This document shows positions 26,047-64,000 of a DNA stretch of 64,000 nt, piece by piece (the first letter of the stretch is position 1; each line of letters opens with the position of its first letter). Location of the stretch: the NCBI GenBank assembly GCA_009602725.1, contig WELB01000003.1, positions 156,264 to 220,263 of the forward strand, written 5' to 3'. This DNA comes from Spirogloea muscicola (lineage: Eukaryota). The translations under genes and the position numbers were made by a program. A model generated the notes under the pieces. That model was not told the DNA's origin. It did no database searches and was given only the letters and a program-made list of their open reading frames with translations.

Positions 26047-27422
26047 ATGGCCAGCGCCGGCGGCGCCACTGCGGCGGCGGCGGCGGCGGCGGCGGCGGAG
26101 GAAGAGGAGGCTGAGGAGGATATAGTGGGCGAGCCCGCGCAGCCGCCGGCGGCGGCGGCAGAGCCGGCCGTGGCGCGTCTGGCGCGCGCCTGGCGCAACG
26201 AGAAGGCAGCCCCCGAGATCCTGCGCTACGACGCCGACGTCGTGGCGCGCCTGCGCTTGCAGCTCCAAGCCCAGGTTGGTGCGCCGCGACCGCCGCCCTC
26301 GCCGCCGCTGCACGCGCCGCCGCTGCCGCGGAGGGCGCCTGAGGATGGAGCCGGTGGCGCCACCGCGCCGCGACCGCCCAGGAAGAGGTGATGGCGACGC
26401 TGGCCGGCGACCCTGCGCGCGAGCTGGAGCTCAAGATGTACCGCCTGGACGCGGACCGCGCGCAGTTCCTTCTCCGCTCCTACCTGCGCACGCGCCTCCT
26501 CAAGGTCGCCGCAGGCATCGCCGCGGCGGCGGCTTGTCCAGTGTGGCTGCTGCTGGCGCAGTACCGGCTCGCCTGGCTACGCTGCTGCTTGGTTGTGCAC
26601 TTTGGCATCGGGGCGTTGAGTTTTTGCTTCCAGCTGAGACCTTGCATGCGGCTGGGGGCGGCAGATTGAGCGGCACAACCTGTCTGTCCTGGCGGACGCA
26701 ACCGCGCACGACCGCCTGTCAGACGACGAGAAGCTCTACACCGAAGGGTCAGTGCGCAGCGTCGCAGGCGGCTGAGCTGGCTTGAGCACCGACGCCACGG
26801 CCTTCAGACTTGCCACGCCGGCTGACGCTGCGCGTGGGCACGACCTGCAGCTATGCAAAGGTCGTCCAGAAGCACCTGGAGGGCGCCGTGCTCGACCGCA
26901 TGCCGGACAAGTACAAGACCATGCTTAAGCAGTCTGAGACTAGCGAGCGGCACGATATGAGTGAGTTCTTCCTTGCTATCATGCACCATGTCCTGCACCC
27001 CATTGGGCAAGGACGTCCTGAAGGAGCACTCTCATACTCTCGCCCTCCTAATTTGCAGCTAATGGACAGAACTCTGGCTCTGCTACCTGCGGCTGCAGTT
27101 GTCGAGCCGCCTGTCGACGACTTCGTAGTCTGCCGCATCAAGGAGCACATTGGCCAAGTCGAGCTGGACAGCGTGTAAGTTGCAGTTCCCTCTCGTGCTG
27201 TGCCGAGTGCCTCAATCCTTTCAGTGCTTCGACAGCAGTGCAGCTGGCTGCACACCCGACAGCACCGCAGCGAACCCTCACCTTAGTGTTCTTCGCCCTG
27301 CTCTCTGTTGGGCCCTGAGCAGCGAGGAGGAATCTATCGACCTGGCTCAAGACGACCTCTTCATCCTACGCTACCGGCCAGTGCGGGCACTCCTTGCGGC
27401 TGGCAAAATCGAGCTTATCTGA
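26047..27422 (+). CDS. SLD5: DNA replication GINS complex subunit SLD5 (6 exons)
   Basis: LARAWRNEKAAPEILRY, YRLDADRAQFLLRSYLRTRLLK|IERH, EPPVDDFVVCR, DLFILRYRPVRALLAAGKIELI*. Confidence 0.95.
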
Positions 27423-39578: not shown

Positions 39579-39675
39579 GTGGACACGACACGAGGACTTC
39601 CCGGGAGGTCACCAATCCCAGTACTATTCTCGCCCAAGGGAGCTTAACCTCGGAGATCTAATGGGATCCGGTGTA
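39579..39675 (-). pseudogene. 5'-truncated 5S rRNA copy (3' ~95 nt) with T-rich terminator
   Basis: Minus strand reads CACCGGATCCCATTAGATCTCCGAGGTTAAGCTCCCTTGGGCGAGAATAGTACTGGGATTGGTGACCTCCCGGGAAGTCCTCGTGTCGTGTCC, collinear with plant 5S. The first ~24 nt are not 5S-like. Confidence 0.88.
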
Positions 39676-40171
39676 AAACGGCACAGTTGTACAAATGGAA
39701 TGTCTATTGTAATGGATCGTAGCGTTGAGCGCCCGAATTTGATCAAGGCGCCATCACAGAAGGCCTGCCCGCCCTGGCGCCGCCGCCGCAGCCGCCGCCG
39801 CCGCCGCCGCCGCCGCCGNTCGCCGGAGAACGCGGCGGCTCCGGCGGCTGCGGCGGCTCCGCCGGCGGCGCTCCCCTGGAGGAGCCGCATGGAGCGGCTG
39901 TCGCGGGGTTTTACGATCAGTGGCGGCGGTGCACGAGCCGGGGCGCTGGCCCGCGGCGATGGCGGCGGGCTGCCGACGGCCGCAGCCGGCGAGCCCGCCG
40001 AGGCGCTCTGACGACGACGGCGACGAGGCTGGAGCTTTGCGGCGCTCGCGAGCAGGCCCTCGGCGCAGGAGCGGCTTGATGACCGCAGCGCTGGCTGGCC
40101 CCACGAGCGCGAGAAGGCATCGGCAGACGAGGGCTTAGAGGCCCCTCGCCGTCGCGGGCCGTCGCAGCAGC

Positions 40172-43190: not shown

Positions 43191-46100
43191 CTATAAATTC
43201 TTGCAACAGCGAAACTTGGCAAAGACATAAGGGTACTGCTTCTGAAAGTAGTTGCGGAAGGAATCTCGGTGAAGTGATGAGTGTGTGGCTGGCGACGACC
43301 CCTTGAGAACATAGTGCTGACCATCAAAGAAATCAGTGGAGTACTCCGGGTACTCCGGCATAGCCTCAAAGCCAGGGTAGTTGTCAAATAGCGAGGAGGT
43401 CCACTCCCAGCCGCCGGAACGCAGTGCCTCGACGCGCTCACCAGCGTCGCTGTCCAGGATCCGGTGCCACTCTGGCTCCGTCATCACGCGACATCCTTTC
43501 GAGGTGCAGAAGGCCATGGCTTCGGACAGGCTAACAAACGCCGGCGCATTTGCAACCTCGCTCCAGTGGCGCGTCCCTTGCGGGCCATGCACGTAGCACT
43601 CGCCAGCGACAAGCGACCATGTGCCAGGGCACTGAACCCCCTGCTTCTGTAAGAAGCTGAAGTCGTCCGCGTTCCACCACCGTGCCTGCGAATAGCCCTT
43701 GTCCTCGACTACGAACTTGCGGAACTGAGCAACGGTCACAGGCAAGGGTGATACCAGAAATGGGTATGCAACTGATTGCAGCCGCGGAGGGCTCTCGTTG
43801 TCCCAGAAGAACCCACCAGTCTTGCGGTCGATTCCCAGCACGACCTTTCCCGCAGGAATGAGCACGCTAGGCGACATCCACGGCCACGCATTGACTTTGA
43901 GGTCGGGCTGCTTCTTGCCCAGCAGCCCACAGCGTACATGGGAGCTCTGGAAAAGCGCCTTCTCGGCCTGGGCCTGCATGTACGCCAGAGTCTCCAGGTG
44001 CATCCGCTCATGCTCGAGGGCCAGGTTTATGGAGAACATGGAAGCCTGCATTTGTAATTCACAAAACCAATCTCTGTGAGGAATGGTCTTGCCTTGCCAC
44101 AACGCCGGACCTCTTTGGAGATCACACACAGGCTGCTTCACATTTAATACGGACTACATAAATTTGGTCAAGAATTGTGAGAGCAAGCTTCAATGCCAAA
44201 CAATAAGTACCTTCTGGTTGAGGACAGCTTCTAGAATGAGCTTGCGATTGCGTTCCACGTAGGCTAGGATCTTGCACTTGGCAGGCCACTGCTTGGGAAC
44301 TTCCGGGTGGCTGTGGCACTTTTCAGGCTCCAGGAGGCTGGGGTCAATGCCTCGCGAGAACATGTGATCATCAGCAGACACTGGATGGTCTGGTAAAATC
44401 TTCAGCTTGGCGAACGCGCTCACATGTCCGCTGCTCACACGCAGGTGAAGGGATTGATGGCACACTGTCACGAGCTTGAAGGTGCACAGGTGTGATGTAT
44501 AGAGCACCGGGCCCACAAATATATGTAGCTGGTCACTCACGGTTGTGTGCATGTGTCAATGGATGCATTGCCCATTTGCACGTTAGGTGTCATCACCAAC
44601 TTATACAAGCTCAGTTTGCTCATTGGGTGTGATCACCAACATGCTCAATCCAGCTGCTCGGTACCAGGAATACTCTCGACTTTGTGCACTCAGTCATATG
44701 AACACGTGCTCCAATTGTTTTCCACAGTGTGCTAATCAGTGGTGGTGGATCAGGAGGTCTCACTAGTAAAAGCAGAACGGATGGCGGACGTCAATGGGCT
44801 TCTCATTCCAGTCCAGAGTGGCAAAGCAGTTGTCGGTGTCATCCCAACAGCTCTGCAGAGCACGTTCAACTGGCAGCAGCATCTGCAGCGAATCAGTCAT
44901 CGTAAGCAATCTTGCCGCAGGCTGCTGCGCTGAGACAACACAAGGTGGCAAGAAGTACTTCAACTGAAAGAAGAACAACGTTCAACCACAACTCTCAAAA
45001 TTGGTCTGGCGAATTGGCACGTGACTGCAGACAACAGGACATACTCCAGAGTTCTTGGTCAGACCTGCATCCCGTACTGCTTGGTGCGCCACGCTGCATC
45101 AATGACAAAGCGTGACTTGCTAGCCAGCCCCTGCAGATCCGCAACAGAGAACTTGCGGGACACTTCCACCAAGATTTGCTCACCAGCACTGCACATCAAG
45201 CTCGGTACCATGGTGCACGGGATTGAGCATGCCATCAAAACAGCATGCTTATGTGCAAGTAGCAGCAGCTTTGTCCCACCGGTGACGCAATCCTGGACAT
45301 CTCAGCAATGAGGCCTGCCTGTTCCAAAGCCTTACCTGATGCTGATGCCGCCGCTGCTGCAGAGGTCCAGGCCATCCAAGAAGCGGACATACATCTCCAC
45401 CCTGTGCAGGTCCTCATTGACCTCCACCTCATATTGCCACTTGCTCTCGTCGTCCACAGTCAAGCCCGGCACGAAGCACTTGAGGGCATTCCGCGTGCCA
45501 TTCTTGATGAACGCCTCAGTCACACCCTTCTTGTCATGGTACGCAGCACGCAGTATTGCCTTGCTCTTCCACATGTCTGTTTACACCATAGATTGTGATG
45601 GATGCCACAATCACAGAGTCAATCTCAGGTTCACAAGTAGAAGGCAAAGGAGAAGTCCGTGGCAAAACCCTCTATTTGCACGGAGCACAGCTCACAGCTT
45701 AGTGCCCTGTAAGGGTAAACAAGTCCACCAAAGGCGTATACAGATCGGTGTCTCAATCAGAGGAACTCTGGGTAAGGTAAACGCACCTGCGCAGAGGAGG
45801 ACTTGCATGTTGGAGCCCCCTGCCGCATGGGCATCTTTGAAGAACTCTATTGCCTCACTGGCTGCAGCAAGAGGAGGTGGAACTGGACTGTCAGGCTTTT
45901 CATCCTTTGCGATGGCTAACAACAGCAATGTAGATGTATGTAGTGTACACAGACCTGCTCAAAATCACGACCTCTGCTACAGCAGCTGTCAAGGTGAATA
46001 GAGAGTGCTTGTGACAGACCAGAGACAACTGCCACTGTCCTTGAAGAATCATCAGATGTGAGGAGTGACAGCAGAATTGACAGTGCGCCACTGCAAACAC

Positions 46101-46915
46101 TGGGCACCTGCCAAGTTCCCCACGCTGGACCCCAGCCACAGGATGCACAACGTGTCCATAGGAAATAGCGCCCTGACTTGGCGGAGGCCCTCCATGTAAT
46201 CAGCTTGCACGAGCGTGATGCTGTCAGCTGTCAAGCCTGGGACTGCCTTCATCAGATTCAATTTGGCCTCCTCCAAAAAGCTGGCTGAGACATCAATGCC
46301 GGCAAAGTGGCACCTGCATATCAGCAGAACAAACGCTTGAGATACTGGGTTGGGCTTAAGCTATGACGTGCAGGTACAGTCTCTTAGTACCAGGAGGCCA
46401 GTAGCAGAAGCTCTGTTGTTGCATGCCCTTCCTCTACACAGCTACGATTGACCAAGCTCGGAGACTTGTCAAGCTTGCACCTGGTCAAGAAAGTCTATGA
46501 GAGACTAGCACCGACGAAGTCCACAGAACTGTTATCACATGCCCTGGTGCTTAATTCCCTGCTTTGCCAGTTTAAAGGTCCCTCTCTTGCTTCTGGTAGA
46601 GTGCACAGCAGTTCCAAGATCATCACCAACTCACATGCCGTCCCGCTTGATGAGGGCATTGAGCAGGAGAGCCGTCTTCCTGGCAGTGCCGCAACCGAGC
46701 TCCACAGTGATGGAGCCAGGCGCAATCCTCTTGACGATATCGCTGGCATGGCGCTTGAGTAGGCCCTCCTCGGCTCGAAAGGGGTAGTACTCCTCCAGCT
46801 CCGTGATGCGCTCGTACAGCTCCGAGCCCTTCTTGTCATACAGGAAGCTGCAAGGGATCTCCTTGACTGGCTTCCGGAGGCCGGCCAGGAGGCCGTCGGG
46901 CGAGTACGTCGGCAT
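43191..46915 (-). CDS. EGT1: Egt1-type ergothioneine biosynthesis fusion: N-terminal EgtD histidine N-alpha-methyltransferase plus C-terminal EgtB sulfoxide synthase (DinB + FGE-sulfatase); 8 exons
   Basis: EgtD motifs: FLYDKKGSELYERITELEEYYP, VELGCGTARKT, LWLGSSVGNL, AAYHDKKGVTEAF, RVEMY, VEVSRKF. EgtB motifs: KPIDVRHPFCFYYGH, FSRGIDP...CHSH...WP, EHERMHLETLAYM, WDNESP, GWEWTSS, YPEYSTDFFDGQHYVLKG, SFRNYFQ. Confidence 0.93.
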
Positions 46916-47076
46916 GGTGCGCACTCTCTCGTGTGCCGCTCGAAGGCGGGAAGCGCCGCAAAGGCGAACGGCAAAGGACTGCCTTGTGGCGTCCCGCAAG
47001 TTTCACCGAGGGAGTGGCGCGTAGGGGCGGACGCCGAAAGGTCCGGGGGAGTGGGGGGCGGCGGCCAATGGCGGGT

Positions 47077-47187
47077 TCAGCCCGCAAGGGCGCACAAGGG
47101 GGCGATGGTGTTGCGCTTGCAGAGCACGGACAGCACCCAGCAGAAGTTGTGGATGCAGGAGAAGCAGGCGGTGCGAGATGCAGCCAT
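47077..47187 (-). CDS. Candidate peptide uORF of EGT1: MAASRTACFSCIHNFCWVLSVLCKRNTIAPLCALAG (36 aa)
   Basis: ATG to TGA ORF; 32 of 36 codons end in G/C, including 29 in a row. Out of frame with, and 161 nt upstream of, the EGT1 ATG; no other ATG in between. Confidence 0.65.
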   Translation of the reverse strand: MAASRTACFSCIHNFCWVLSVLCKRNTIAPLCALAG

Positions 47188-47482
47188 GGGCGGGGCCTGC
47201 GCGAGAGCCGGCCGGGGGGAGGTGGGGGATAGTCGGTCGCGCGGCTGGCGGAGGCGGCTGGCGCGCGCCGGCGGGCTGGCAGGCGGCGGCAGGCGCGAGG
47301 CCGCAGCTGCGCGCGCGCAACTGCGGCCGCGAGCGGCTGAGCTGAGGCCGGAACGAGGCAAAAGGGGGGGGGGGGCTTCGGGGGGTACTCGCCAAGCCCC
47401 CAAGTGACGATGACGGGATGCGCCGGCCGAGCCGCCGGGCGGGCGGGGGCGCGCGCCTTCCCCTCCTCGGCCCGGATCAGAC

Positions 47483-47630
47483 GCCACGTCGCCTGCGCGC
47501 CAAGCCCACCTGGCTCCGCGTGGGCGCACCCTGGCCCGAAGCTCGGCGCCACGCCGGTCCGGTGGCTGCCACGTAGGTAACACGTGGCGTGTAGGAGCCG
47601 GGGCCCCGGCCCCCCTGGCGGCTGACGTCA
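47483..47630. promoter_or_regulatory. ABRE/G-box/C-box cluster upstream of EGT1
   Basis: GCCACGTC 47483, GCCACGTA 47568, CACGTGGC 47581, TGACGTCA 47623. Confidence 0.5.
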
Positions 47631-47879
47631 GGGGCAGCAGCTTCGCAGGAAACGCGGGGGCCGCGACCCGGCGCGTCATTGTCGCCGCGTGTCGGGTTGC
47701 GGGTGCGACGGGTGGCGCGAGGCTCGAGCACCCGCCGCGGGCGTCAGCGGAAGGTGACGCCGGGGCCTGACGGCAGCGGCCGCGGCGGGGCGCCTGGGGC
47801 TCTGCGGGGCGTCTGGGGCTCCGGCCGCCGCCTCTGGGTCTCGGCGGAGTGCCTCATTCCCTGCAGCGAGCTACTCAGA

Positions 47880-48050
47880 CCTGATGTTGCTCACTCGTGG
47901 GTACTGAGCTTCCCTCTGCATCGTCTCTGTGTTCTGCAGTGTTTTGTAGTGTAGTCCTTTCTCTCTTTCTCCGGCTCGTCTTTCTTTGGCTTTGGACATT
48001 GTCCATTCCGTTTTGGGCTGGCTTTGCTCTATGAGCGCGCACTTCTTCTC
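47880..48050 (+). repeat. Repeat module B
   Basis: CCTGATGTTGCTCACTCGTGGGTACTGAGCTT... closely matches 39362-39530. Partial inverted copy at about 50511-50530. Confidence 0.85.
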
Positions 48051-48105
48051 TGTGCGCGGCGCGGGGCCGGGGCTCGACTTGCTCTCCTGACCCCTCGCTG
48101 CTGGA

Positions 48106-49760
48106 CAGAAGAAAGCCAAGCGCGGCCTTGGCTTTCTGGTGGCTGGGAGAGGCCAGCCCAAAAGAGTGGACAAGGTCTGAAGGAGCCGGAGTGGCAAGGA
48201 CTGAGACAGCAGTAAGCGAACTCTTAGTAACCTCTAGTCAGTAGATGCAAATCTGAATAGCTAGCAGGCGGAAAGACGTCGCCCTGAGCGCGGAGAGCCA
48301 GGCTGCCGCACCAGGGGAGGAGGCCGACCGCAGCCGAGCATGGCCACGCACGTCTGTTAGAGGGAGGAGCTGGGAAAGAGAGGAAAGGAGAGACTGGCTC
48401 TCCCTGAAGGGGGCGAGGGCTGTGAACAGCCAGCCCGACAGGAATTGACAAGGTCCGAAGGGGCCAAAACAGCGCTGAACGACATCAATAAGCAAGGACC
48501 ATATGTATTAATCACTTAGAAATCTATAGTTCTTTCTCTCTAGTTAGTAGCCGCAAAGCTGGGAAGCTGGACAGGCTGCGCAGGAGGCGCCCGGAGCACT
48601 TGGGCAGGCCGCGCCTTAGCTGCTACTTCTGAATCTTGTCGGGGTCTCCTTTCCAGCTGCAAGTCACTCCGACTTGCGGCTGTACTACGCTTCCATCTGC
48701 TGTAGTCTTTTGCATAGCTGGGTGGTTTTGGCGCCTTTTGGCCCTTGGGACCTTGTTCTACTTTCTGGGCTGACGTTTCACAGTCCCCGCCCCTTTTGTG
48801 AAAAGCTCATGTTCTGCCCGAGGCCACTCGCCCCAATTAGAGAGGCTGGGAACCAAGCTCCCATTTGCTGTAGCCACTGGCCTAGCTGTGTGGTTTTAGC
48901 GCCAACCAGCCTTTGGACCTAGTCCATCCTTTCCTGGGCTGGCCTTTCACAGCCACTTCTCTTTTCTTTCACAACCCTCGCCCTTTGGAACAGCCCCGTA
49001 TCGAAGACGAGAGACTCTTCCATAAGAGGGTGATGGCTGGATTGGCCAGCCCAGAATAAGGAAAGACGAAGTTCGAAGGGGCCAAAAAGCGCTAAAGCAC
49101 ACTGCGACTCAAAGTGGCCACTAGTTGGTGAAGAGAAAATAACAGGTTGGCTGGAACAACGAGGAGCAGATCTTCCGAAATGGCGAGAGCTGTGAGAAGC
49201 CGGAGGTTAAAAGGCCAGAGAGAGATTTCTGTAGGGGGCGATAGCTGTGAAAGAGACACGCTCATCCAAAGGGGGAAGGGCTGTGAAAGGAGAGTGGCTC
49301 TTCCAAATGGGGCGAGGGCTGTGAATAGTCAACTGGAAAAGAAGTGACAAGGTCCGATAAGCGGCCGATAAGCGCTTTTCCAAAGCATGCCCTGTAGGAT
49401 AGACACTTAGTAATCTCTAGTCAAGGGGATGAAGACCCTTCCCAGTAGAGGGCTATGGCTGTGAGAGGCCTGCGCAGAAAAAGAATCAAAAACTGTAATT
49501 AGGAGCCGCAAGTGAAAGCCAGCCGATAGAGAATAGACAGCATGGAACGGGACGAAGGCCCAACCATCTCACACAGCTGGTGGCATCTGCGGATAAGCCA
49601 ACCCGGACCAACAGTCGTGGCAGCGCGCCGGCTTGAGGTTACTGAGAGTCCGCTTGCTGCTGTCTCAGTCCTTAGCACTCCGGCTCCTTCAGACCTTGTC
49701 CATTCCTTTGGGCTGGCCTCTCCCAGCCACCAGTTAATCTAGCCGCGCTTGCTTCTTCTG
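48106..49760. mobile_element. Foldback/MULE-like non-autonomous structure: ~1.65 kb bounded by ~130-bp inverted R1 copies and filled with ~55-bp modules
   Basis: 48106-48235 is approximately the reverse complement of 49636-49760. Internal GGGGCGAGGGCTGTGAA / GACCTTGTC modules occur in both orientations. No transposase ORF and no clear TSD. Confidence 0.5.
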
Positions 49761-51633
49761 CCGGCTTGCAAGACTAGAGCCGGTTCATGTCGCGGCCCAC
49801 CCTGATCCACAGCCTTACTGGCGAGCGGGGATTCAGCCTGCCCACGATGCTGTGGAGGAAAGAATGTGCCTCTCCCAAAGGAAAAGATCGTGTATTTGAA
49901 ACGAACGAAGGCCAAATGGCCAAGTACAAGGGGGCGAGGGCTGTGAACAGCCAGCCCGAAAAGTGTTAAGGTCCGAAGGGTGAGGGAATGGAGGGAGTGG
50001 AAGGAGGAGGGAGGGCGGTGCGCATGAAAAGAGGGGAAGGCCAACTCAAGCTGATCTGCTGATCAGGCAAAGCCTAATTAACGGAGTGGGCCGACACAAA
50101 GCGAAACCCCATGCTCGCTTCCATACCCTACTTTGAGGATATTGCAAGTCTGGGATATGCTCGACGTGAGGATATCCTTCCAGCCCAAATGGCCATGCCG
50201 GCAGCCTACTTGTCGTCTTTGCAACGTCGAGTCTCAGTGTGTCTGCAGAGAGCTTAGGCTCATGCGTCGCATCAGAAAGCTGGTCGAGCCTTAGCTGGTG
50301 GCACAAGAGCGTGTCGATTGCCGTCCGGTATGCGACCTCTATGTGTGACTTGTCGTTACTGAGCGGGTCAGCTTAGCAGCAGGTTATGTATATCTGTCAA
50401 TGTGCTTGCCTTCGTACTTGGCTACACAGGCCCTCCATCACTTGTAATACACACATTTCTATGCCGGGAGGTGCTAAGGTAACAGAGCGAAAGCTGGCCG
50501 AATGGGTACTTCAGTACCCACGAGTGAGCACAATAGATCCGACACGCTCATTTGGGGAGCCGGAGCACCACCACGGAAGCCAGTGAACTGGCTTGGTATG
50601 CATCCAGCACGCTGATGTGTGGTCAAAGAAGCAGAACGAAAGAAACAGCATGGTGTGCACGAAGTGAAAGGGAGGCCGCACCGAGCCCATGCACTAGTCA
50701 TACGAAAGGGTGAAGGCTGGAGCTCGTGGCGGGGCTTCCGCCTCCGCTTTACCCCTGGATGGCTTTCACAGCTGCTCTTTCAAAATCAGCAGCCGCATTC
50801 TTTACCCCCCCCCACATGCTGGCGCCTTCTGCGCCCTTGGGGCCGCTCTTTCCTTGCTGTTAGTCCGTTTGGGTGCTGAGTAGCACAGAATACCCTTTTG
50901 CTCAATACGGAAGGACGCCTTTTATCTGATGAAACTCGTCTAATTGGTTGTGCTCGCCCAACTATGTCTCTTCTTGTGGCCTGTGTCCACCACCCGTGCC
51001 CTTTGCATGAGGTCAGCTTTGCCTCCCTTTCTATCGTGCACAGCACCTTATGTGCCCTTGAGCACAGTTCCTTGTCCCCATTGTCCTGGCCATGCACAGC
51101 CTCTACTTCTTAAAGTCTATTACTCTTTCGTTGGGCTGCTCTCTCTCAGCCCCTTTTAGAAGAGTACTCTTTCCTCCTCTGGAGACCCATTTACCCCACG
51201 GCTACTTGTACGCGCTCCCAAGAGTTGCTAGTGGTAGCGTGCAACAAGCTCATAAGGTGACCTTCTTCTGCAGAGCCCAAGATGAGCTGACGCTCAGGAT
51301 GAGAAACTCCCATTCACTCATGACAAGGCTATGAAACTTTTGCAAAACATCGTTGCAGCCCCCCAGCCTGTTCAAGGAATACGGAGGCCCACGGTCTGCC
51401 TCCTTTGCTGCACAGGACTTTGCAAAGCTGCTGCTCTGGAGCCCTGATCAACTGTGAAATTAGCAGCAAATGAGCTGTTGATCCTGTCTGTCGAGAACTG
51501 TCATAAGGCAATGAGCTGCCTCAACCTGAAGAAGAGGAAAGGCCTTTCCCTTGCAGAGTAGCCATCACTAGCTATGCACAAGTCTCGCTTGCTAAAACAA
51601 TGGAGAACAATGAGAAGGTCTAAAGGATTGCAA

Positions 51634-54600
51634 TCACGTATTAACAAAACTCAACAAGAAGCTGCTGACTACACGACGTACAAAGGGGTATGGAATGCGT
51701 CGGCAGACACGGCCGTCCAAGTATGCTAGTGAGCTTGAGAAGAAGAGATGAATGAGAGCTGGCCTCAGCCCTCGCCACTTGCCACTCTTCTCCTTTCCTC
51801 TCTTCTCCACGTTTCTTGACTTAGCTTGTTCCTCGTCTTCTTCATTCTTCAGTGAAGGCTTGTCATCAAAGCCTAGCTGTTTCTTTGCCTTCCTTGGCAG
51901 CAGGTTTAAGGCTCGCCTTCGCATGGATCGCACCACAATGATGACTGCCAGCTGCTCACAGAGGGCTCTCATAGCAGGCCACATTTGTTTATCCTGCACT
52001 CATTCATTGAAGATGTTTTATGTCTAGGATGACAACGCAGAGATGGGAGATTTGAGGAGGTATTGGACACTACTTCCGACCTGCGGTGCAAAATAGGACT
52101 GGATGGAGGAGTGTTTAGCTGGGCCGCATGACGTAAAGAAGCACAGCATGTGACTGCTGGTTACACTCTACCAGCTTGCCCAGCTGCTTGCTGTTCACCT
52201 GCTCCCCATGCAGCCTCCTGAGTGATAGCGCAGCAGCTTGCGAAGGCTCTCCGGTAAGAAGGCCCTCGCCGACCAGAAAGTGCCGCACGGAAGCAACAAT
52301 TTCATCCTTCAGAGTACTATTAGGCGGCAAATTCTTCACCACGACCTGCAAACAGGCACAGCTTATGGGTTGAGCATTGAGAAATGTGTGCTCCACCCCC
52401 CCTCCAAATCTGCTGGACTGCCACTGACCATCCTTGCTTCTCAGAGTAGCAATAAAAAGGGGAAAAATGGCTGTGATCTTGTACAGGCTAACTGACCCTT
52501 ACAGTGCAATAGCGCTTGAGAGCTGACATGGCTAAGGCATCATGACTGGCACAAGACCTGGTCGTTGTCAAACTTGACCCGTAAGTATTCTTGCTTGAAG
52601 AGTGCATCAAGCGTTGCCTGAAGGTAGCCCTCCAAGTAGACCTGCATAAGAGCTTATTTGTGACATTCTGTTGTATACAGCATGCGCAAGGCTTGCAATA
52701 GCCCCATGTGGACCTTCAGAGTCCTCATTTATTCAAGGACACTATCATCTTCACTTCCACTCATTTCCTGCTTCATACGAGACTGTCTGGCGATACGTGG
52801 GCACTACATCTCAGACGATCTCCTACACTTCCTCCAAACCTCTCTGATCATGCATTCAGCGCAATCTCAGCAAACTTGATAGTGCGCCAACTATTGCTAC
52901 AATGCATGAGGTGTCAGCACATTCTGAGACATATACCTCTTCAGTACCCACTGACCGATCTAGCTGAATGCGACATGTGCCATGGGCCCCCCCTCGCACT
53001 GCGGTCCTCAGCATGTCTGGTTTGAGAGCTATGTTGAGGATTCCCCTTCTGAAGCCCCGTAGCTGTTGACAGTCAAAGTTTATGAGCAAAGATGATTGTC
53101 TTATCAGTAAACAACTCGCACATTGCACTACAGCTGTCAAATATACATGCAACGTGTGCTGTGCAAGATCAACTTCAGGACGGAAGTGTGCATGACCATA
53201 CCAGTCCATCAACTCCAGCAGCTTCAGCACCTCTGAGTACAGAGTCAGAGACTTCCGTGACAACAGCATAAGCCAGGTTAGAACCTGCCTCCTTTACCTG
53301 TCAAATAGGATGCCTGTGTGAACAAGGCTGACAGAACAAGCTGCTATATCCAAGGTAAGAGTGATATTAGGTTCCAGGAGATTGACATCAGCAGTAACTC
53401 TTGAAACCGTGATCAAACGTTGTGCAAGCTTCGCCCTTTCACCTGCACCGCACACCTCTTCTCCACATTACACAGTGGACTGTATTCATCACTTCCGTGT
53501 CTATACGATATGCAACCTCATTACCTTATTCTCAAAATCGCCCAGATATCGGGTGGTCCCATATTTGCCTTTACGACCTATGCCCTGCCGTAATAAGTTG
53601 AAAGCTCCTGCAACTCTACCGAAATGCGTGTCAGATTGATACGAACTCCTCAGCAGACAAGCATGTCAGTAGAGTCCGTGGCTGGTAACTTTTGCATGAA
53701 GTGTGACTTGGTGATTCGGTAGCAAGGGCTGACTCAGGTCAAGTTCTCTTTGAGTCTTCAGCCTGCGATTTATTGTTGACCTGCATGGCACTCTTGTGCA
53801 TGATGCATTTCTTCCTTGAGTAACAGATTGCAGAACCAACCTAGAGTAATATTCTTTGCAGAAGATAAGTTGGCTGGATCAAAGAAGGCATCAATTGAGG
53901 AGGCCGCTGAGTCGTCAAACAGAGAAGCAAACGCAGGCGGCAGCAACTCGCTACCCCGTGCCAAGTAAACAGCCCGCATCCCATACCTGTTGCACACAGC
54001 ATAAACAACAGATTGTCCCCAGAGTGAATGCATAAGATACTCCATGGGACATTATCATGCTCTTTACATCCCTCCATTGCCTTAGTCCATGTTGACCACA
54101 ACTCTCGTGCCAGGCTATCTCTTCAAAAACCTCATCAGAAAACCAGAGTTGCCACTTACCAAGAGTAATGCTGGGCAAACTTGACTGCTAGCTGCGTATA
54201 TGTCAACAATGCATGCTGCAACGATATCCCATTCAGTTCAATGACACGGCCCTTCACAGCAGGCACCTGCAGAGGAAATGTGCGTACATCAGGGACTAGT
54301 CTGCTTCTGTAATGATCACCTTAGCTGATACATGAGCGTGAAGCTTATATCACTTGTCTAAGAATGGAGGACAAGAACCACGCATGCAGGCTCCAACCCT
54401 GCTGTGTGGACTGAAATCTCGATGTGCAGAGAAGCGGATCAACTAGCTAGACCGAGGGTCAAACTTCCTCGTAATCTGCTCTTAGAAAGCCTGAGGATTA
54501 CCTTTATAATGGATTGAAGCAGCGCTCGAACAGTCTCCTGAGCCGATGTCAGGTCTGCCCTGGGGCTTCCAGGCTCAAAGCTTGCTACAATCTGCCTCAT

Positions 54601-57600
54601 GTCACCCATGCATGGTGTGTAAGTAGCCTTTGTCATTCTCACAAGAAAATTAGTAGCTAAGAGGTGAGTCTCTTAAGCGGCAATGCGGCCCTGCATCTTC
54701 TAATTGTTAATTAGGATGGGTGTTCCAGACTTTCTAGTGGCCGTGAGAGGTGATATAGATGGCAATGCCAGCCCGTACAGGCGCATGCACGCCAGAGCGC
54801 GCGAAAGTACAGGATTGTGTCTCACATACATATCTCTCGCACTAACCTTGATTGGTTGGACTTCGAGCTGCTCGAAGTATAGGGGCTGGCTTGGCGTTGA
54901 GATGTATGGCTGAAGTCGTGATCGAGAGAATGGCACAAGCCTCATAACAGTATCACCGTCTATATTGAGCTCCAGAGTCTGTCAGAATAATACGTAGACA
55001 AGAGTATCATCCTTACTACAAATACAGATAACAAGAACCTCGTTTCCACCCGAATGGCCGATCTTGGGTGCTTGGAGCATGACCATTGTCAGTTCATACG
55101 TAAGGGTGGAGTCTACAGAGTCAGCCCCCGAGCTTCAATCATAAAGTATGTAGCACACGGTGAGACAACTTCCCCCAAGGAGGCAGCCGACATCAGGCAT
55201 CACCGCTAGGTTGTCAGAAGGCCGCTGCTATAAGTGCTTGCAAGGAAGGTAGCAGATAAATTCATGATGAAGCTCCTTGCAAGATGTGCAAAATATCTCA
55301 CTGATAACAGGCCCCCACAGCCTTGCATACGATTGGATCAAGAAGATTTTGGGTAACCTACCTGGACGAGGAAGAACGCATAACGCAGATGGAGTGGGCT
55401 GCCAGGAGCATTAGACATGACAAATGCAGCATGCAAAAATGGGGTGCCTTCATCCAAGCTCTGTGCTCTGTGGGGCCGGAATATCACAATCTGTGGAGCT
55501 CCAGTCCACTTGGCATCAATGTCCATCCTCTGTCAGAGCAGCAACAGCTATGTCATGACATCACCACTATACAGCAAATGTGGATATAGGAGTTACACGT
55601 CCTATAAGATGTCAAGGTGTTGCAGACATAATATATTGAAATTTAAAATTCTGCACAAAGCTACTCTAGTTGTAGTAATACATGGGCAAAAGGTTTGAGC
55701 AAGATGTGACTCAGGCTTTATGGGCTTCCTCGACCTACCACTCTTCTGCTGACCTACTGCCGACCTAGATGGAAAATGAGCTGTGACATGATATAGATCA
55801 TCATTGCAGACCCAGGAAGCAGAAGCGACTAAATTAGGTGAAGGTGCAATGTGACATCGGATCGGGGAGCTGCACCTGCACTTTGACTTGGCAGGCAGTC
55901 GAGTCACTTGTGATATCTAGTATCACGGCAAGATTCTCAGTCCTTGCATACAAGAAGGGCACAAAACTGTTTGCTCCCAAGTCATCATGGTCTGCATCCT
56001 CGTTGTCTTCCTGCACAGCTCGTGTATTCTTCAATCCCAATGTATGCATTTGACAGAACACTTTGCGATGGCTTCATGAGAAAGCTCCGCTACTTGCACT
56101 TGCACATACTATGTCGAAAGCTGTGGAGCAAGATCAAGTGCCCGAACACTCATGTTCAGAACGCTCTACTTGACTTGCCATCATGCAAACTGTCTTAAGA
56201 AGTATTCAGACAGAAGACATCCTGTCATATGCCTGCAACATCACAAGCAACTCAAGCAGGCAATGAATGTAGTGATTCTATCATTTGTGGGTTTACTGGA
56301 GGATATGCATGCTTACAGACACCTTGCCAGGCTCCATAATGCTAAGCCCTAATGTTGCCACGTTTATGTCTATCTTGGCAATGGATGTTCTGGCTCCTGC
56401 TCCCCTCAGTCCCTTCTCTTCACTGCCCTCCTCACTGATCCTTAGCACCCTAGTTGGTCCTTCTGCATAGATCTCGTAACCCAAGGCTCGTACTTCTGCT
56501 GTTTTCGTTGATGCAGATCTCTTCATTAGTTCATTCTCAGTGAAGGTTGCAGGAAGAATGGATGACATATTAAATGTTGACGCCTTCCTGAAGGCTCTAA
56601 AGAGCTTCCAGCTTCTCAGCTTATCAAGATTGACTTCCTCATCTTTTAGGATTGTCCCTGGCAATGACAGAAATCGCTCAATATGTCAGCACTAGGCAGC
56701 TCTCCCACCTGCGGCATGCAGATTGGAATAAGTCATATAAGGACATCGCAGCTCCGATTGCCCCTAGCTGTTATCCTGCAACCTCGTCACGTGAAACTAA
56801 GTAGGCCTTACTGGATGGGCATCAATGGAACGGCCAGCACAAGAAAGACATGCAACTAATTGGGTGCTGTCGATGAGCAGGATTTGAATGTGAATATGCA
56901 GCTGCAAATGGTCATGAGATTGGTCCACTTGCCAGGTAGTGAAATGCTGAGCTTGCGAGGCAGTGTCAGATCATCCCAGACATATCCAACTGCCTCGTGG
57001 CCGTCGAGGACTTCCCAAGAATCTGCATGCTGTGGCATGCCACAGCATGCCACAGCAGTAATTTTCAGTCTATGCACGAACTTGCATTTCTGAGCTGTTT
57101 TCTTCTGAAACACCTTAACTGTGACGTAGTACTCGTCAGAAGCAGTGACAACATCTTGGAGACCTGATTATTGCCAGGTCTTCCTACCTTCTGGTGAAAT
57201 GAGATGCTCTCTGGGAGCTCATTCTCAATGCGGTAAGGTACAGCATCTGCTCTCTGTGGCCTGATATATATAATGAGTGAAGGCGCCTCCTCTATCACCT
57301 CAGCTACAGCAAATCGCACATGTGCATCTGTTACAGCAACCGTGTGGGTGAGCTTGATTCACTCACTATACATGATACAATAAGGTCATGTCCTTTCCTC
57401 ATGTGGCATAGCATGAAGGGGCTCATATTCACCATTCCCACGATTGCCTAGGCTTCAAGGCAATCAAGCTCAATTCTAAAGATAAGGGCCTAGGGGTCAG
57501 GCTTTCTCATATTGACTGCGATCCTTGCTAACCAGGGCAAAGATTATCACCACACTGTCAGCATGTTACAGTCACCTTCGTTTCTTATTCCATCGACATT

Positions 57601-60600
57601 ACCTGCAAACTCTCCTCTTCCCCTGATGCGGAATGAGAAGTTACCAAGCGAGGCCACATGTAGTGGACCAGACCAGTCCCAATTCCTCGAGTCTGTTTTT
57701 GGCTTCAGTCGAATTGCAACTTGTGCACCAGCAATGGCTGATTGAAGTGTCTCATTGGCCTGGGCATGGAAGGGCGCCCTTTGACCCACCCCTAGCATGA
57801 TGTGAGAATGCTCATCAGCCTGCATCAACGTGGGAGAAGGATTGGGCAGTGCTTCGAAGCTTAGGAGCGACTAGATTTCATGCTTGTACATGTTGCCTTC
57901 TCCCTGCAATTTCTCAGTAGGATACACAGTGCTTATATGTCCAAGTTTTCATTCCAATGACCAACACTGTTCGTACATGTTTGGCCATACCTGCAAACCA
58001 TCTTGGCAGACGAGGAGCGACTCGGGGCACTGGTTGACAATCACATGTCGCGGAGCCAGCTGGACAAGGCCCGCAGCATCTACAAGCTTTATACCGAGTT
58101 GAAGACTTCGTGGCACCTCATAGTCAACCGTCCGAGCAGTGTATGGCTGATCAAGTGGTTCGCGATCTATGCCATTGTGAGACTGTCGAGAATGTACCTG
58201 GAGGAGAGTGAGTTCTGTTGTGCTGGCTAGTGCATTAAGGTCCAGCTTACCAAATGCTTGGCCCTTCTCTGCCACCATTAGCAGTATAATGCCCCCCCTG
58301 CAGTCGGCAAAGTTGTTGCAATGAACCAGTATGACAAGAGCAATGTACTTTATGCTGTTGCATATACCGCGCAGCTCAAATTACAACTGGCCTGCAGCTG
58401 CATTACCTGGGCAGCCACGAGAGCGAAGAGCCTGGCTTCAATTGGAAAACTGGAGTTCCTCCATTCTGAATTTGACTTCCAGTACACCTTTCACTTTCAG
58501 CTGGCCATTCGAGGCATTTTTGTCTGCCAATCCTCCACCAGCTGTCACCATGAACTATTGAAGTGAGCTGATATGAGCATGGACCACAGGACTACTCTCT
58601 CGGACAATGATGGTAAGATATTGGTGTCCTGGCATTGTGCAAGTTCGACAAAAGAGTAATGTGACAGGAGTTTATGCAGATACGTGTTGCCAGGTTTTGT
58701 ATGAACCTTGGGTTGGATCTGACAGCCCGTGCAACTCCGGGAGAGCACAAGAGACTCATTTGGCTACTATTTCGCAGCGTATGCTTGGCCTTTATTGTGA
58801 CCTGCAAAGGAATTACCTATCATTAGGGCGATACAACAGCAAGGCCAAGACTAGCGCACTACAGAGAGTGCCGCACATGTGAGTGAAGCAGCAAAATGAA
58901 GCAAGACGGCAACCTGGCTGACACCGTCTGCTGCCTGGTCCATCTTCAATTGAATTGAAAGCTTCTCGTCTGTCCCAATCAAAATCTCCTTGAAACCCTC
59001 TCCACCTCTTTCTGCTTTCCGAAACACGTCATTCAGTTGCGCTGTACTCGGGAGTATCCTCAAAGGGATAGGCGCTGAGCTCATGCGAAGGTCCATATGA
59101 TGGACAATAAGGAAACTGTGCTCTGGATCTGCATATGCGCAAGCAGTGTGTGCATTGCCCTCTACCACGAAACTGTTGGTCGAGCCGGGTCCATTTGTGG
59201 GGGGCCTTGCGGATGCTGCTTCTGTAGGAGAAGAAATTAAGCTGGTCTCAGCAGTACAACTCGAAGACACTTCTCGATTCAGTGTGGATTGTCAAGCCAG
59301 TAACATGATCTTATCGCTCAATTACTGGTGGTGCTGCAAGGTGTCCAGTGATTACAAGGCCTCACCTTCTGAAGAAGCGACAAGGGAGATTCCTACTGTG
59401 GAAGTGAGAAGATTCTGCACACGCAGTGTGGGGAGGAAGGCTAGCTCTCGCTGTTGGACCCAAGCCTGCTGGCCTCCACCATCCACAGGTACGTCTCTGC
59501 ATGTAGTCCTCAACAGGAAATGAATGTCTTTTTTGAATTTAGACTTGCAATGCAGGGTCCCAAAGGTGGACTCGAGGCTCTGGCCCCAGACTCCTCCCAT
59601 AGTTCTTGTTACACCAGCACGGACTTTTTCCATCCACCCTGAGAGCTGGACTGGCACTGCTTCAGATACCTGCTCAGACCAATTCCATACTGCCTCTTGA
59701 CATGTGCCAGCTGCTGGCCGAATAGACAGCATATTATCTCCTGTACAAGAATCCGGAATGATTTAGGTGTGCATGCCTACTATGTTATACAGATGCAGTG
59801 ACTCTGTTCAGCGACTCTGTAACCATGGACTCTCTATGCAACCATTTAATCGGTCTGCAGCAGGTGTGACTTGATGACCAGGCACCTGACTGATCAGGAA
59901 AGGCTACCCTTCACTTAACATAGAAGAAAGACAGGCTCCATCATGCATGTATGACTTCCTCACCAAGTATCATCTGAGCAAGGACTCCTTGATTCTCTCT
60001 TTGCAGATCAAGCGACTGGAATGATACTATGATATCATCAAGTACGTCCCCACTTTCCAGAGTCTTCATTTGACTGGATTCTGTACTGCTGCCTTCTAGA
60101 TTTGAAAGCACTAGGGTCTTGTCTCCAGGTTCGTCAAAACAGAGCTCCAAGGGCAGTCCAGTCAGATTACGTATTGTAAGCAAGGGTGACACGCTTAATG
60201 TCAGGCCATTCTGGGTGTAAGGAAAGCAGTAGACCACTAGTTAGTCAAAGCAACAAGCATGATATCGATAAAGAAAAAATTTGCCTAGTCCTATTCGAAT
60301 GTTGTTCTGTCAAGCCAGAAACATTGTCAATAGTGAACAGCCACAAGCAGAGAAGTGTACCGTAGGCTTGCACACGTCAAGAACAATGTAAGGACCAGGG
60401 CTGAATCCTTCATTGTCTGCACAGAGGGCAAAGCAAGGTCAGTCATCAAGCAATGCACCAGCTTCTATGCTAGAGAAAAGCATAGGCGCAGGCCAGACAC
60501 AATGTGTCATTACTCTTACAAAGGAATGACTGTCTCAGTCCTGATGTAAGTGACACACTTAGTAAGTGACACACTTGCTTAATCTGCTTCACCCAAAGGT

Positions 60601-63600
60601 GATTTGACCCTCACCTTGTCCAAAAAGCAGGCGGGTGCGCACTGCTCTGACACCTGGGCTAAACAGGGATTGCAGCAGTGGCTCAGTGCTATAGCCATTA
60701 TTTGCCTGCAACTTTAGCGATATATAATCACATAGCTGGGTTGCCGTCCCTTCCTTGCGTGAGGTTGTGTGCCTGTATCGAGTTATAGTGCTCAGTCAAT
60801 AAGAGGAGGAAATTTCTTCACTTATCAGATGACACTTGCTAGCAATGTCCAAGATGCAATGTAATGAGGGCTTCGAGCTATTAAGCAAATGAGGAGCTGA
60901 CATAGCTGTGAGCAAGTCTGGGATTGATATTGACAACCCCACGAGCAGCTAGAAGAGTGTTACTTATGTGCACTTTGTGTGGAGGTGCGTAGTGTGGACA
61001 TGGAGCTCAGCAGAGGCAATAAGACCTGATGAGAAATGGACTTGCATCGTGGGGCCTGACTGCCCCCTGCCTTTGTGTATCCTCAGTATCAAAGCTGCAG
61101 CACAGCTGGATTGCTGTGTTGTTCTTGACCTGCAAGTGCAGATGTGCTATGATGTGTGACAATGAGTCAACACTTTCCATCCTCGCTCGATTGGTGTGAT
61201 GCCTCAAGCTTGCAAGGCGGATTGACATCAGTCATTGGTGACACAGACCAATGGTTATTTGCAATCAACAACACTTTTTCGTAATTGCACACAGCAATTT
61301 GCACTGGACCCAACCCAACATCCAGTGCAAATGAAGGAGGTCACGTGAGCTAAGTGCTGGAAGGAGGGATTGTGCTTTAAGTGCTGGACAGGTGCACCAT
61401 GCAGGAATAAGCAGGAGAGTATTTGATGCCGTAGGGTTGAGCCAGGTCCAAAGCTCCAGCCACAAACAAACCCATATCTAAGATAGGCTCGCTTAGGAGC
61501 GCATCAACCTGGTGGAACGACAGGGAGTATGGTGTCAGTTGCTAGTGGACCACACAAAGACTCCCCCCGAATTTCCAAGATTCACCCACATGCATTAGCA
61601 ACTGCTTGGAGTGTCTGCAATCAGTGCTATGCCACGGAAGAAATGCTCCATGCTGGTCAGATGCAGACTGTCGTGGAGACAGGCTCACAAAGACTCATAT
61701 GTCTGCTTCAGAGCTTTACTTTGCCAATTTCAAGGTGGACAATGACAGGAGACATGGAATATGTAGGCATGTCATTGTATGCTGAATCTGTTTGTATGAT
61801 CAGGGACAAATCCAAGCTAACAGGCTTTATGACAGATTCCCTGCACTCAGCTCACAAAGGTATTGGTCATGAAGCTGCACGAAGCAGCCAAATCATTTGA
61901 GCAATATTGCACCCAATTTTGGTAGGACAAATTTTCAGTATTCCACAAGCATCGTGCTCAGGTACAGTATCACGTTAGCACAACTAGCACAGCAGGACCA
62001 AGAGCCTCTAATACATCTTTGGCATACAGCAGATTGTGGATGTGCAGCCCAAACACACAGTAGCAAGTAATGAAAGATCAATACTGTGCTCACCAGTGGC
62101 TGCAGCGAGAGTCAAAGTACTCCAGCCCTACGAGGCCTTTCATGAATGCTTGAGCCCTTCTTGGGAATACATGGGCAATCCCCTCCCTTCCCTGCAGCTT
62201 AAGTCTGGTAAGAGGCAGCAGTTGCCTCACATCTCCCCTTGGCTCGTACAGGAGCGTTACCGTCAATGGGCCATCAAGTTGACATAACACTTCTGGAAGC
62301 CTTGCCCTCATCTCAGCAAGCTGTGTAGTGTCTGCAGACTCCATGAGACTATGGTGGCTATTCTTTGCTGGTACTTCACTACATGTTGCAAGGCCGTCTT
62401 CCCTGGGCTTGTCATCACCTGGAAGTAGCTCGTCCACCCAGGCTGCCTCCATGCAACCTGACTCCTCTTTCATAGTTGCACCCATGCTCCTTGTGTGCTC
62501 AGCAAGGACTTGTAGGCTGATTGCAGAGGACAGCGTTGCCTCCACCAGAGTTGGCGTACCTCCAATGAATGACAGGGCTCGCTTACTCTTCTTATTGATC
62601 AATGCCAGCTTCGGCCCATGCTTGCATTCGAAAGTGGTGAAGTCCTCATCTGTGTTATCTTCTGAGCTTGGGACCTTTTCAAGCCGCCACAGCTCCCAGG
62701 ACTTGGTGTTGGTGCTTGCTACCTCAACCATACCAGAGCCAGTGTCGTACTTCACTTTCAGAGGCTCCCCACCAGGGCTTGATGCTTGTAGAGATTCTAA
62801 GACGAACCAGTCCCGCCGGCTTCCCACGTATTTCACCTGAAGATCAGCATCATCGAGAACTGAAGGATGTCATAGGCCCAATGCATTCTGTAGTATACTA
62901 GAAGATGAAGTGAGCCTGTTGAACCAGGATACCAGACTGTCTTGAAGGTCTGCAGTAGTGAGAGCTGTTACTGGTGTACTGGGTTGAATCCCTCACCTGG
63001 AAAAGGGCCCTTTTGCCAAAACTGTAGTGCCTCTCCCCAACAAGGCGATAACCACTTCTGGCCTTAGCTCTTGCTACTCTGGTCCCACTTCTTCTCATCC
63101 CCGTTGTGTGACTCTGCCAATCCCTATTATCCTCAACCGCAAAGTACTGGCATGCATTACAGTCGTAGATTGCTACTACAGAGCCTGCACAATGCACAGA
63201 GATCCTGAGCTAGTGTCTCGCTTGTTGAGGCTTGAGTGGTCAGTAGCAAGCAAAACCTTGCCACTGCAGCACGGTAACTGTCAAGTATGACGCCATCACG
63301 TATGTATGACACCTCAGATGCTATGAGAGTGATGGTGGCGAGTTCAAGGTCGACCAACTGGACCTAGCAACACAGAGGACAGGAGGTACTTGCCATCAGG
63401 GGGAGAGATGCCAGATGTTCCACTCTGAACAACTTGCCCATCTGGATGGGAGCTCTGAGCTCTTGAAGCACTTGGCGTTGTTGTTGTAGACTTTTTTGAG
63501 GAAGTCGACAAGAGTGCCAGGAGAGGAGCAAGAAGATTCACCAGAAGCTGAAGAGTGCAAGGTGTCGGTTTGCATCTTAGACTTCATTGCTCTGACGCAT

Positions 63601-64000
63601 TTTGCATTCAGCATCCTATCGTACGAAAGCTGCAAGTGTGGAGCGCATGGAATGAAAGACAATCTTAACCCAATGTCAAGCTGCAGATTGAGAGCCATTA
63701 TGGGCCTACTTTGGAAGTCATAAGCCATGGATAAACGAGCTCATGCTTGCAGCAAGCTCTCGATCGAAGAATCAGAAATCAGAAATCACCTCAAATTCTG
63801 ACGTTGTAACAAGTATCTCACCGCCGCGAAGCTGGCACCTGCCAGTCAATGCTCCGCTCCAGGTAGTAGTATGGACCCGCTCTGTATCAGCTAATTCCAC
63901 CAGTATTTGAAGTCTGTCCAAGATGCACCGTTCCTCAAAGCCCTCCCTGTCCTGGCTGCCTTCTGCCTGCTTTTGACCTTCAATCTTCTCCACATCTTCG
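51634..64000 (-). CDS. VPS13: VPS13-family bridge-like lipid transfer protein, plant VPS13X (At3g50380-like); 3' portion only, many exons
   Basis: YSFGKRALFQV|KY...WFVLESL...GEPLK, WSGP, VPYRIEN, VGYVWDDLTLPRKL, YAEGPTRVLRI, VKEAGSNLAYAVVTEVSDSVLRGAE, C-terminus LAYLDGRVCRRIPYPFVRRVVSSFLLSF*. Confidence 0.9.

Follow-up and report, generated by a model that had tools for sequence, protein, structure and literature searches.

A cysteine-rich open reading frame (ORF) of 36 codons, with the appearance of coding sequence, lies in the leader position of an ergothioneine synthase gene (Egt1) and on the same strand in Spirogloea muscicola, a green alga close to land plants; its function is unproven. 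A sequence-only reading had described the ORF as Cys-rich, coding-like, in front of Egt1 and separate from the Egt1 frame, and codon periodicity, codon usage and the geometry of a 161-nt spacer support that description. The best explanation, to which we give a probability of roughly 35%, is that the ORF acts as a translated upstream ORF (uORF) that would throttle Egt1, probably through ribosome stalling that depends on the peptide and follows thiol or ergothioneine status. It is thus a candidate addition to the metabolite-responsive uORFs and not a proven one. If regulatory, it would provide a translational control point for ergothioneine synthesis, beyond the existing transcript-level data, and would be simple to target by editing where more ergothioneine is wanted in algae or mosses; there is a precedent in the GGP uORF, which has been edited to raise ascorbate (PMC7503886). 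Papers are cited here from those parts of their text that were available.

The features discussed below are numbered within the window, which is the whole 64,000-nt stretch of DNA that was analysed.

43191..46915, minus strand: spliced Egt1-type gene, histidine methyltransferase (PF10017, EgtD-like) followed by FGE-sulfatase/EgtB-like sulfoxide synthase
46916..47076, minus strand: spacer of 161 nt, with no ATG and no codon periodicity
47077..47187, minus strand: 36-codon Cys-rich ORF, candidate uORF; CxxC at residues 8–11, other Cys at 16, 23 and 32, no acidic residues
47188..47480, minus strand: GC-rich (80–85%) stretch preceding the ORF, probably 5′ leader or proximal promoter
47484..47630, no strand assigned: cluster of ACGT-core motifs (TGACGTCA at 47623–47630, CACGTG at 47581–47586, ACGTGG at 47569–47574 and 47484–47489)
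47820..51000 (edges approximate), no strand assigned: high-copy repeat with nested inverted arms, which bounds the upstream region
51250–64000, minus strand: large multi-exon VPS13-like gene (weak PF25036 match, E 0.026)

Anatomy and coding signal of the ORF

The ORF runs on the minus strand from an ATG at 47187 to a TGA ending at 47077, and its 36 residues include five Cys and one His, as previously read, the strand having gone unstated. The cysteine codons (8, 11, 16, 23 and 32) are all TGC, and the peptide begins Met-Ala. A single-sequence structure model predicts one helix over residues 3–25, with a hydrophobic core and the CxxC motif (mean pLDDT 69, pTM 0.37). The start context is CCCATGG, with the reported C at −3 and a G at +4; at the Egt1 start these positions are A and C. 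The same CCC-ATG-G context is found at 26047, another likely gene start, so that calling the context of the uORF ATG weak is unsupported in this genome.

The earlier observation that codons 5–33 all end in C or G is correct. The GC contents of the first, second and third codon positions are 0.38, 0.55 and 1.00 over this run and 0.44, 0.58 and 0.89 over the whole ORF. When the ORF's own bases were permuted, a 29-codon GC-ending run arose once in 200,000 trials. The periodicity of the entire ORF has a −log10 p of 3.72, a value matched by 2, 3 and 0 of 20,000 shuffles when three leader spans were dinucleotide-shuffled. On this measure the ORF is ninth among the 607 ATG-initiated ORFs of 20–80 codons in the window; the eight with higher ranks, judged by eye, coincide with coding exons or face them on the other strand. 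The two ends of the signal fall no more than four codons from the ATG and the stop, respectively, and codon periodicity was looked for in the flanks and not found. Upstream, the frame remains open as far as 47853 and includes an ATG at 47679, and this open stretch has no codon periodicity either. For comparison, 11 other gene starts in the window were tried, three of which had no in-frame ATG and two of which resolved to one; in the seven leaders used, whose starts were placed roughly, the best ORF from an upstream ATG reached a −log10 p of 1.55, against 3.72 here. Cysteine is enriched in the peptide (five per 35 codons, p about 4e-4).

The synonymous-codon test of the ORF is less convincing. 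Under a model scored against the local background, the ORF obtained −1.5 and −2.5 bits, values reached by 87 and 306 of 5,000 shuffles, and it fell outside the top 20 of 877 ORFs. The signal consists of A and T being kept to codon positions 1 and 2 within a GC island, a pattern expected from amino-acid constraint and not from unusual codon choice. These results bear on the reading that the ORF is under no current selection, being either a lineage-specific coding remnant or an ORF that arose by chance within a GC-rich island, and would at most dampen Egt1 irrespective of its sequence. In its favour are the synonymous-codon score, which 1.7–6% of shuffles attain, the lack of a firm match in the homologue and leader searches described below, and the fact that the ORF was singled out post hoc from a genome-scale scan. 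We nevertheless regard it as unlikely, given a periodicity bounded so closely by the ATG and stop and matched by only two or three shuffles in 20,000, a read depth unlike that of the adjoining repeat, and the lack of a second copy in the window.

The opposite (plus) strand is also open across the ORF. Its frame, with an ATG at 47105, shares the same GC3 run and has the usual profile of GC1 above GC2; on the minus strand, the uORF ATG is preceded at 9 nt, in frame, by a CAG that resembles a splice acceptor. The periodicity could in principle be a shadow, cast either by a plus-strand exon sharing third positions or by the last exon of a minus-strand gene further upstream. Strand was assessed with a classifier that compares sense and antisense codon models over 32 GC3 runs of the window, the strand labels being assigned by recognition of the encoded proteins; on held-out runs it was correct for 30 of 32 with synonymous usage and for 28 of 32 with full codon usage. 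At the ORF it favours the minus strand by 19 bits (synonymous) and 16 bits (full). The plus-strand reading, which scores −17 bits for synonymous and −15 bits for full codon usage and has no Pfam match, was rejected. As to an upstream gene, the VPS13-like gene, the last exons of which we take to resemble the C-terminus of plant VPS13X, appears to end near 51.6 kb; it already has a stop-ended exon at 51637, 4.4 kb from the ORF and across the repeat, and the ORF is unlikely to be its last exon. A shadow of either kind is hardly to be expected.

The Egt1 gene, the spacer and the upstream region

The gene behind the candidate uORF is, by domain content and homology, an intact EgtD–EgtB (Egt1) gene. 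Plant EGT1 is defined by a methyltransferase domain followed by an FGE-sulfatase domain (PMC13358676), and this order, with the SAM methyltransferase first, is found here: PF10017 is matched by the four 5′ exons and PF03781 by the last. The NCBIfam egtD and egtB models match the stored full-length proteins with scores under the curated cut-offs. Exon 1 (46915–46633) is 100% identical to the EukProt Spirogloea muscicola record SM000003S11005 and 96.8% identical to the other two copies; the nearest protein cluster consists of three Spirogloea muscicola Egt1 proteins, whose record names give scaffolds s3, s275 and s377. The gene groups with streptophyte homologues in a tree. The sequence-only reading, which had placed the ORF in front of an ergothioneine synthase, is supported on this point, and the lineage has been shown to make ergothioneine (PMC13358676). 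The public model of this copy is 696 aa long, about 23 residues short of its sisters (719 and 721 aa); the missing residues are encoded in frame at window positions 44870–44930 on the minus strand, and the shortened model is probably a gene-model error.

The ORF ends 161 nt before the Egt1 ATG, which is in another frame, and no ATG intervenes, all as had been reported. One rival reading joins the two: the 5′ part of the ORF would be an alternative first exon spliced into Egt1, which would lengthen the protein at its N-terminus, for instance by a targeting peptide. An in-frame join could be made from a GT that follows codon 17 or 20 to a CAG at 46979, the Met-Ala start and the lack of acidic residues would suit such a role, and liverwort and chlorophyte Egt1 proteins carry N-terminal extensions. 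Against this, the pyrimidine tract of the acceptor is poor (0.35), the AG that precedes most Egt1 donors is missing from these, and periodicity runs for 13–16 codons beyond them. All three Spirogloea Egt1 protein models begin at the 46915 Met, and the Egt1 proteins of Mesotaenium, Closterium, Klebsormidium and Spirogyra start at the equivalent Met-Pro. The peptide was found on none of the stored homologues (0 of 80, best E 2.9, and then 0 of 102, best E 3.7, among proteins from the Egt1 searches). Splicing into the Egt1 coding sequence had been named beforehand as an outcome that would overturn the uORF reading; on protein models, with poor in-frame splice sites, we hold it to be improbable.

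It is likely that the ORF shares an mRNA with Egt1. The ACGT-core cluster, whose motifs presumably correspond to G-box, ABRE and CRE elements, is by its motif content a likely promoter, located before the ORF. Inside the spacer, a CCAAT on the plus strand at 47065–47069 leaves room for a transcription start behind the ORF. A structured RNA element was considered and rejected: there are no Rfam matches at the locus, and the 371-nt leader folds like its shuffles (z 0.20). The 3′ 150 nt of the spacer folds slightly better than shuffles (z −2.08, 3 of 200). A perfect 13-bp GC-rich hairpin at about 47299–47328 on the minus strand, 110–140 nt upstream of the uORF ATG, is not better than shuffles (z −0.96 and −1.31). 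The sole Rfam match found was a 5S rRNA (56.3 bits) at 39580–39694 on the minus strand, amid protein genes.

The repeat lies about 630 nt upstream of the ORF and contains inverted arms of 102 nt at 92% identity and of 27 nt at 89%, 2.6 kb apart. Read depth over it is 4.7e5–1.5e6, against 274 over the bin holding the ORF (run X2, in which depth covers positions to 48300), and no second copy of the ORF was found in the window; an origin of the ORF from the repeat was rejected on these grounds. The depth over the ORF resembles that of intron bins (about 240) and is uninformative on conservation; among the variant rows listed, none lies inside the ORF. Repeat-like sequence is seemingly also present near 29.5–29.9 kb and 13 kb.

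Searches for relatives of the peptide

Word-based protein searches found no homologues of the peptide among proteins of 22–72 aa or of 73–2000 aa; both searches require shared 5-residue words, and gene callers miss such short ORFs. In family searches, the best Pfam and PDB matches had E values of 0.36 and 0.39 and NCBIfam gave none. We see in the peptide what we take to be a likeness to RING/IBR half-sites, below significance. Exact look-ups returned no match for the peptide, or for five other ORFs, and viral and prokaryote contigs, where the prior was low, contained no homologue.

The sequence-only reading had suggested comparison with the leaders of EGT1 orthologues. A metagenome scan covering 7 of 64 parts yielded 12 Egt1 loci, nine of them bacterial-looking and three eukaryote-type, and the comparison was run on the leaders of these three. 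In the tree, L001 and L004 are placed outside the streptophyte clade; their chlorophyte-type leaders contain no similar or periodic uORF. L002 groups with Sphagnum proteins and provides the sole streptophyte leader compared: it is an uninterrupted 739-codon EGT1 contig or mRNA with a 925-nt leader and several upstream ATGs. One frame of this leader has eight identities to the peptide core over 20 columns, reached by four of 300 query shuffles, but a bacterial-type control locus gave 8 of 300 in this test; on retesting, 33 and 40 of 2,000 shuffles reached it in any frame, and 20 and 77 of 2,000 from its ATG. The match is borderline (p 0.01–0.04), and the suggested comparison has so far yielded this one equivocal similarity and nothing from the other two leaders.

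Several features of L002 were observed alongside. The frame at L002:285–371 contains a Cys-Trp-hydrophobic-Lys core with a weak likeness to the peptide, and lies directly behind a TTTTCAG that resembles a splice acceptor; the first bases of the contig, GTAATG, resemble a donor. From these sequences, the leader may hold a retained intron, the ORF start being in a missing exon. A 28-codon hydrophobic uORF at L002:690–776, which ends 149 nt before the start codon, shows mild periodicity (32 of 3,000 shuffles); it is the most periodic in that leader and is alike in position, and it fails to align with the 36-residue peptide. These observations are leads and not support for conservation of the uORF. 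If conservation fails, the ORF would be an ordinary lineage-specific uORF.

Candidate control of ergothioneine synthesis

Our preferred reading, a translated uORF on the Egt1 mRNA, would operate as follows. Transcription would start upstream of 47187, behind the ACGT-motif cluster, and scanning ribosomes would either translate the uORF or bypass it by leaky scanning and reach the one remaining ATG, that of Egt1, 272 nt downstream. With abundant ergothioneine or reduced thiol, the nascent helix and its cysteines would bring the ribosome to a pause and block those following it; oxidative stress would relax the pause, and more Egt1 would be made. Nascent-peptide stalling in cis was chosen as the best reading on account of the apparent constraint over the full peptide. 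Both effector and direction of the proposed switch are borrowed, by analogy, from plant metabolic uORFs. We count in favour of the uORF the confinement of periodicity between ATG and stop, the minus-strand codon usage, the cysteine enrichment, the lower scores in the seven other leaders, the ATG-free spacer and its length, the absence of the peptide from the stored Egt1-search proteins, the Met-Pro start of streptophyte algal Egt1 proteins, the rise of ergothioneine under stress in Klebsormidium and Physcomitrium and the established product-responsive uORFs of plants. Against it stand the lack of homologues, the negative chlorophyte-type leaders, the merely borderline match in L002, the weak synonymous-codon test, the CCAAT in the spacer and ergothioneine levels that do not vary with stress in Spirogyra. 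In a wider version of this reading, which we consider doubtful, the ORF encodes a eukaryotic arrest peptide that is conserved and that would detect ergothioneine, thiol redox or a metal through its cysteines while still in the ribosome, so governing how much ergothioneine synthase is made in streptophyte algae and perhaps also in bryophytes. A regulatory uORF at this gene would bring thiol or redox state, as a further effector class, onto the short list of metabolite-sensing nascent peptides.

Product-responsive uORFs are established on plant biosynthetic genes, including AdoMetDC (polyamines), PEAMT/XIPOTL1 (phosphocholine) and GGP (ascorbate), and the precedents invoked in the first reading are confirmed by the available text of PMC7503886. 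Like these conserved-peptide uORFs (CPuORFs), the ORF described here is short, coding-like, wholly upstream of a biosynthetic gene and in a separate frame; unlike them, it encodes a Cys-rich peptide and is a candidate known from sequence alone. The ESUCA definition of a CPuORF comprises a start and stop in the 5′ UTR, non-fusion to the main ORF, conservation of the peptide across taxa and Ka/Ks < 0.5 (PMC7106846). Of these, non-fusion alone was found, the peptide being in none of the 102 proteins (protein models only, no transcripts); the geometry and the promoter-like motifs agree with a place in the 5′ UTR, and the ORF is a candidate CPuORF. Angiosperms do not have EGT1 (PMC13358676), and angiosperm-based CPuORF catalogues (PMC7106846) are therefore unable to list a uORF on it. 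No description of a uORF on EGT1 was found in the literature searched, which included few subscription papers and no supplementary CPuORF sequence tables, and within that scope the statement that none had been described is upheld. The same literature yielded no account of translational control of ergothioneine synthesis or of a cysteine-based uORF sensor in eukaryotes; neither cysteine nor ergothioneine occurs in the available text of PMC9305500.

The layout of the locus also recalls green-algal bicistronic transcripts (PMC11291117), in which a short ORF 1 is separated by a similar ATG-free spacer from a second ATG with a purine at −3; the 161-nt spacer is close to the Chlamydomonas medians of 148 nt for uORFs and 183 nt for bicistronic loci. 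Those loci differ in being chlorophyte, with long-read and proteomic support and a much longer ORF 1, whereas the present case is argued from DNA. They bear on a rival reading in which the product is a trans-acting microprotein: a helical CxxC peptide that attaches to metal, membrane or Egt1 itself, translated either as the first ORF of a bicistronic message or from a separate transcript. If the ORF influenced Egt1 translation at all, it would then do so passively, by competing for scanning ribosomes. The coding signature and the predicted helix, with its hydrophobic core and CxxC, would suit such a product, and bicistronic mRNAs translated by leaky scanning are common in chlorophytes, forming a continuum with uORFs (PMC11291117). 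The absence of family matches and of homologous small proteins in the searches above argues against it, as does a length of 111 nt, far under the Auxenochlorella ORF 1 median of 291 nt (PMC11291117), and on balance the microprotein seems to us an unlikely account.

A parallel to the cysteine content is provided by mycobacterial polycysteine attenuators (10.1101/834739), in which a Cys-rich short ORF likewise precedes a cysteine-related gene. These are bacterial and leaderless, carry consecutive Cys codons and use an RNA-structure switch to raise expression on Cys shortage; the candidate here would instead rely on eukaryotic scanning, and its Cys are dispersed. The term ergothioneine does not occur in the available text of that paper. 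The attenuators, the cysteine enrichment and the role of Cys as an Egt1 substrate (PMC13358676) would favour a cysteine-supply gauge, in which scarce charged tRNA-Cys slows ribosomes at the five TGC codons, blocks scanning and lowers production of cysteine-consuming Egt1. The attenuators, however, carry at least two consecutive Cys codons (10.1101/834739) and no two are adjacent in the ORF; the non-Cys remainder is equally coding-like and would be superfluous to a pure codon gauge. We judge such a gauge quite unlikely, below both the microprotein and the unselected ORF. Of the Egt1 substrates Cys and His named in the original argument, cysteine is enriched in the peptide, and one His in 36 residues is unremarkable; the cysteines are dispersed, unlike the tracts of the known attenuators.

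The physiology of ergothioneine in this lineage bears on the preferred uORF reading in both directions. Its synthesis in plants was reported only in 2026, with stress-dependent levels and regulation data at the transcript level only, and it is found in streptophyte algae and bryophytes (PMC13358676). High light and heat raise ergothioneine in Klebsormidium and Physcomitrium, and under stress it is unchanged in Spirogyra, the zygnematophyte tested (PMC13358676). The terms uORF, upstream, translation, leader and Spirogloea do not occur in the main text of that paper, as available. Among the stored Egt1 relatives, a Mesostigma record (P0075, 1925 aa) combines PLP-aminotransferase, sulfoxide-synthase and methyltransferase domains in an altered order, and is, from its domain content, a possible one-gene ergothioneine pathway.
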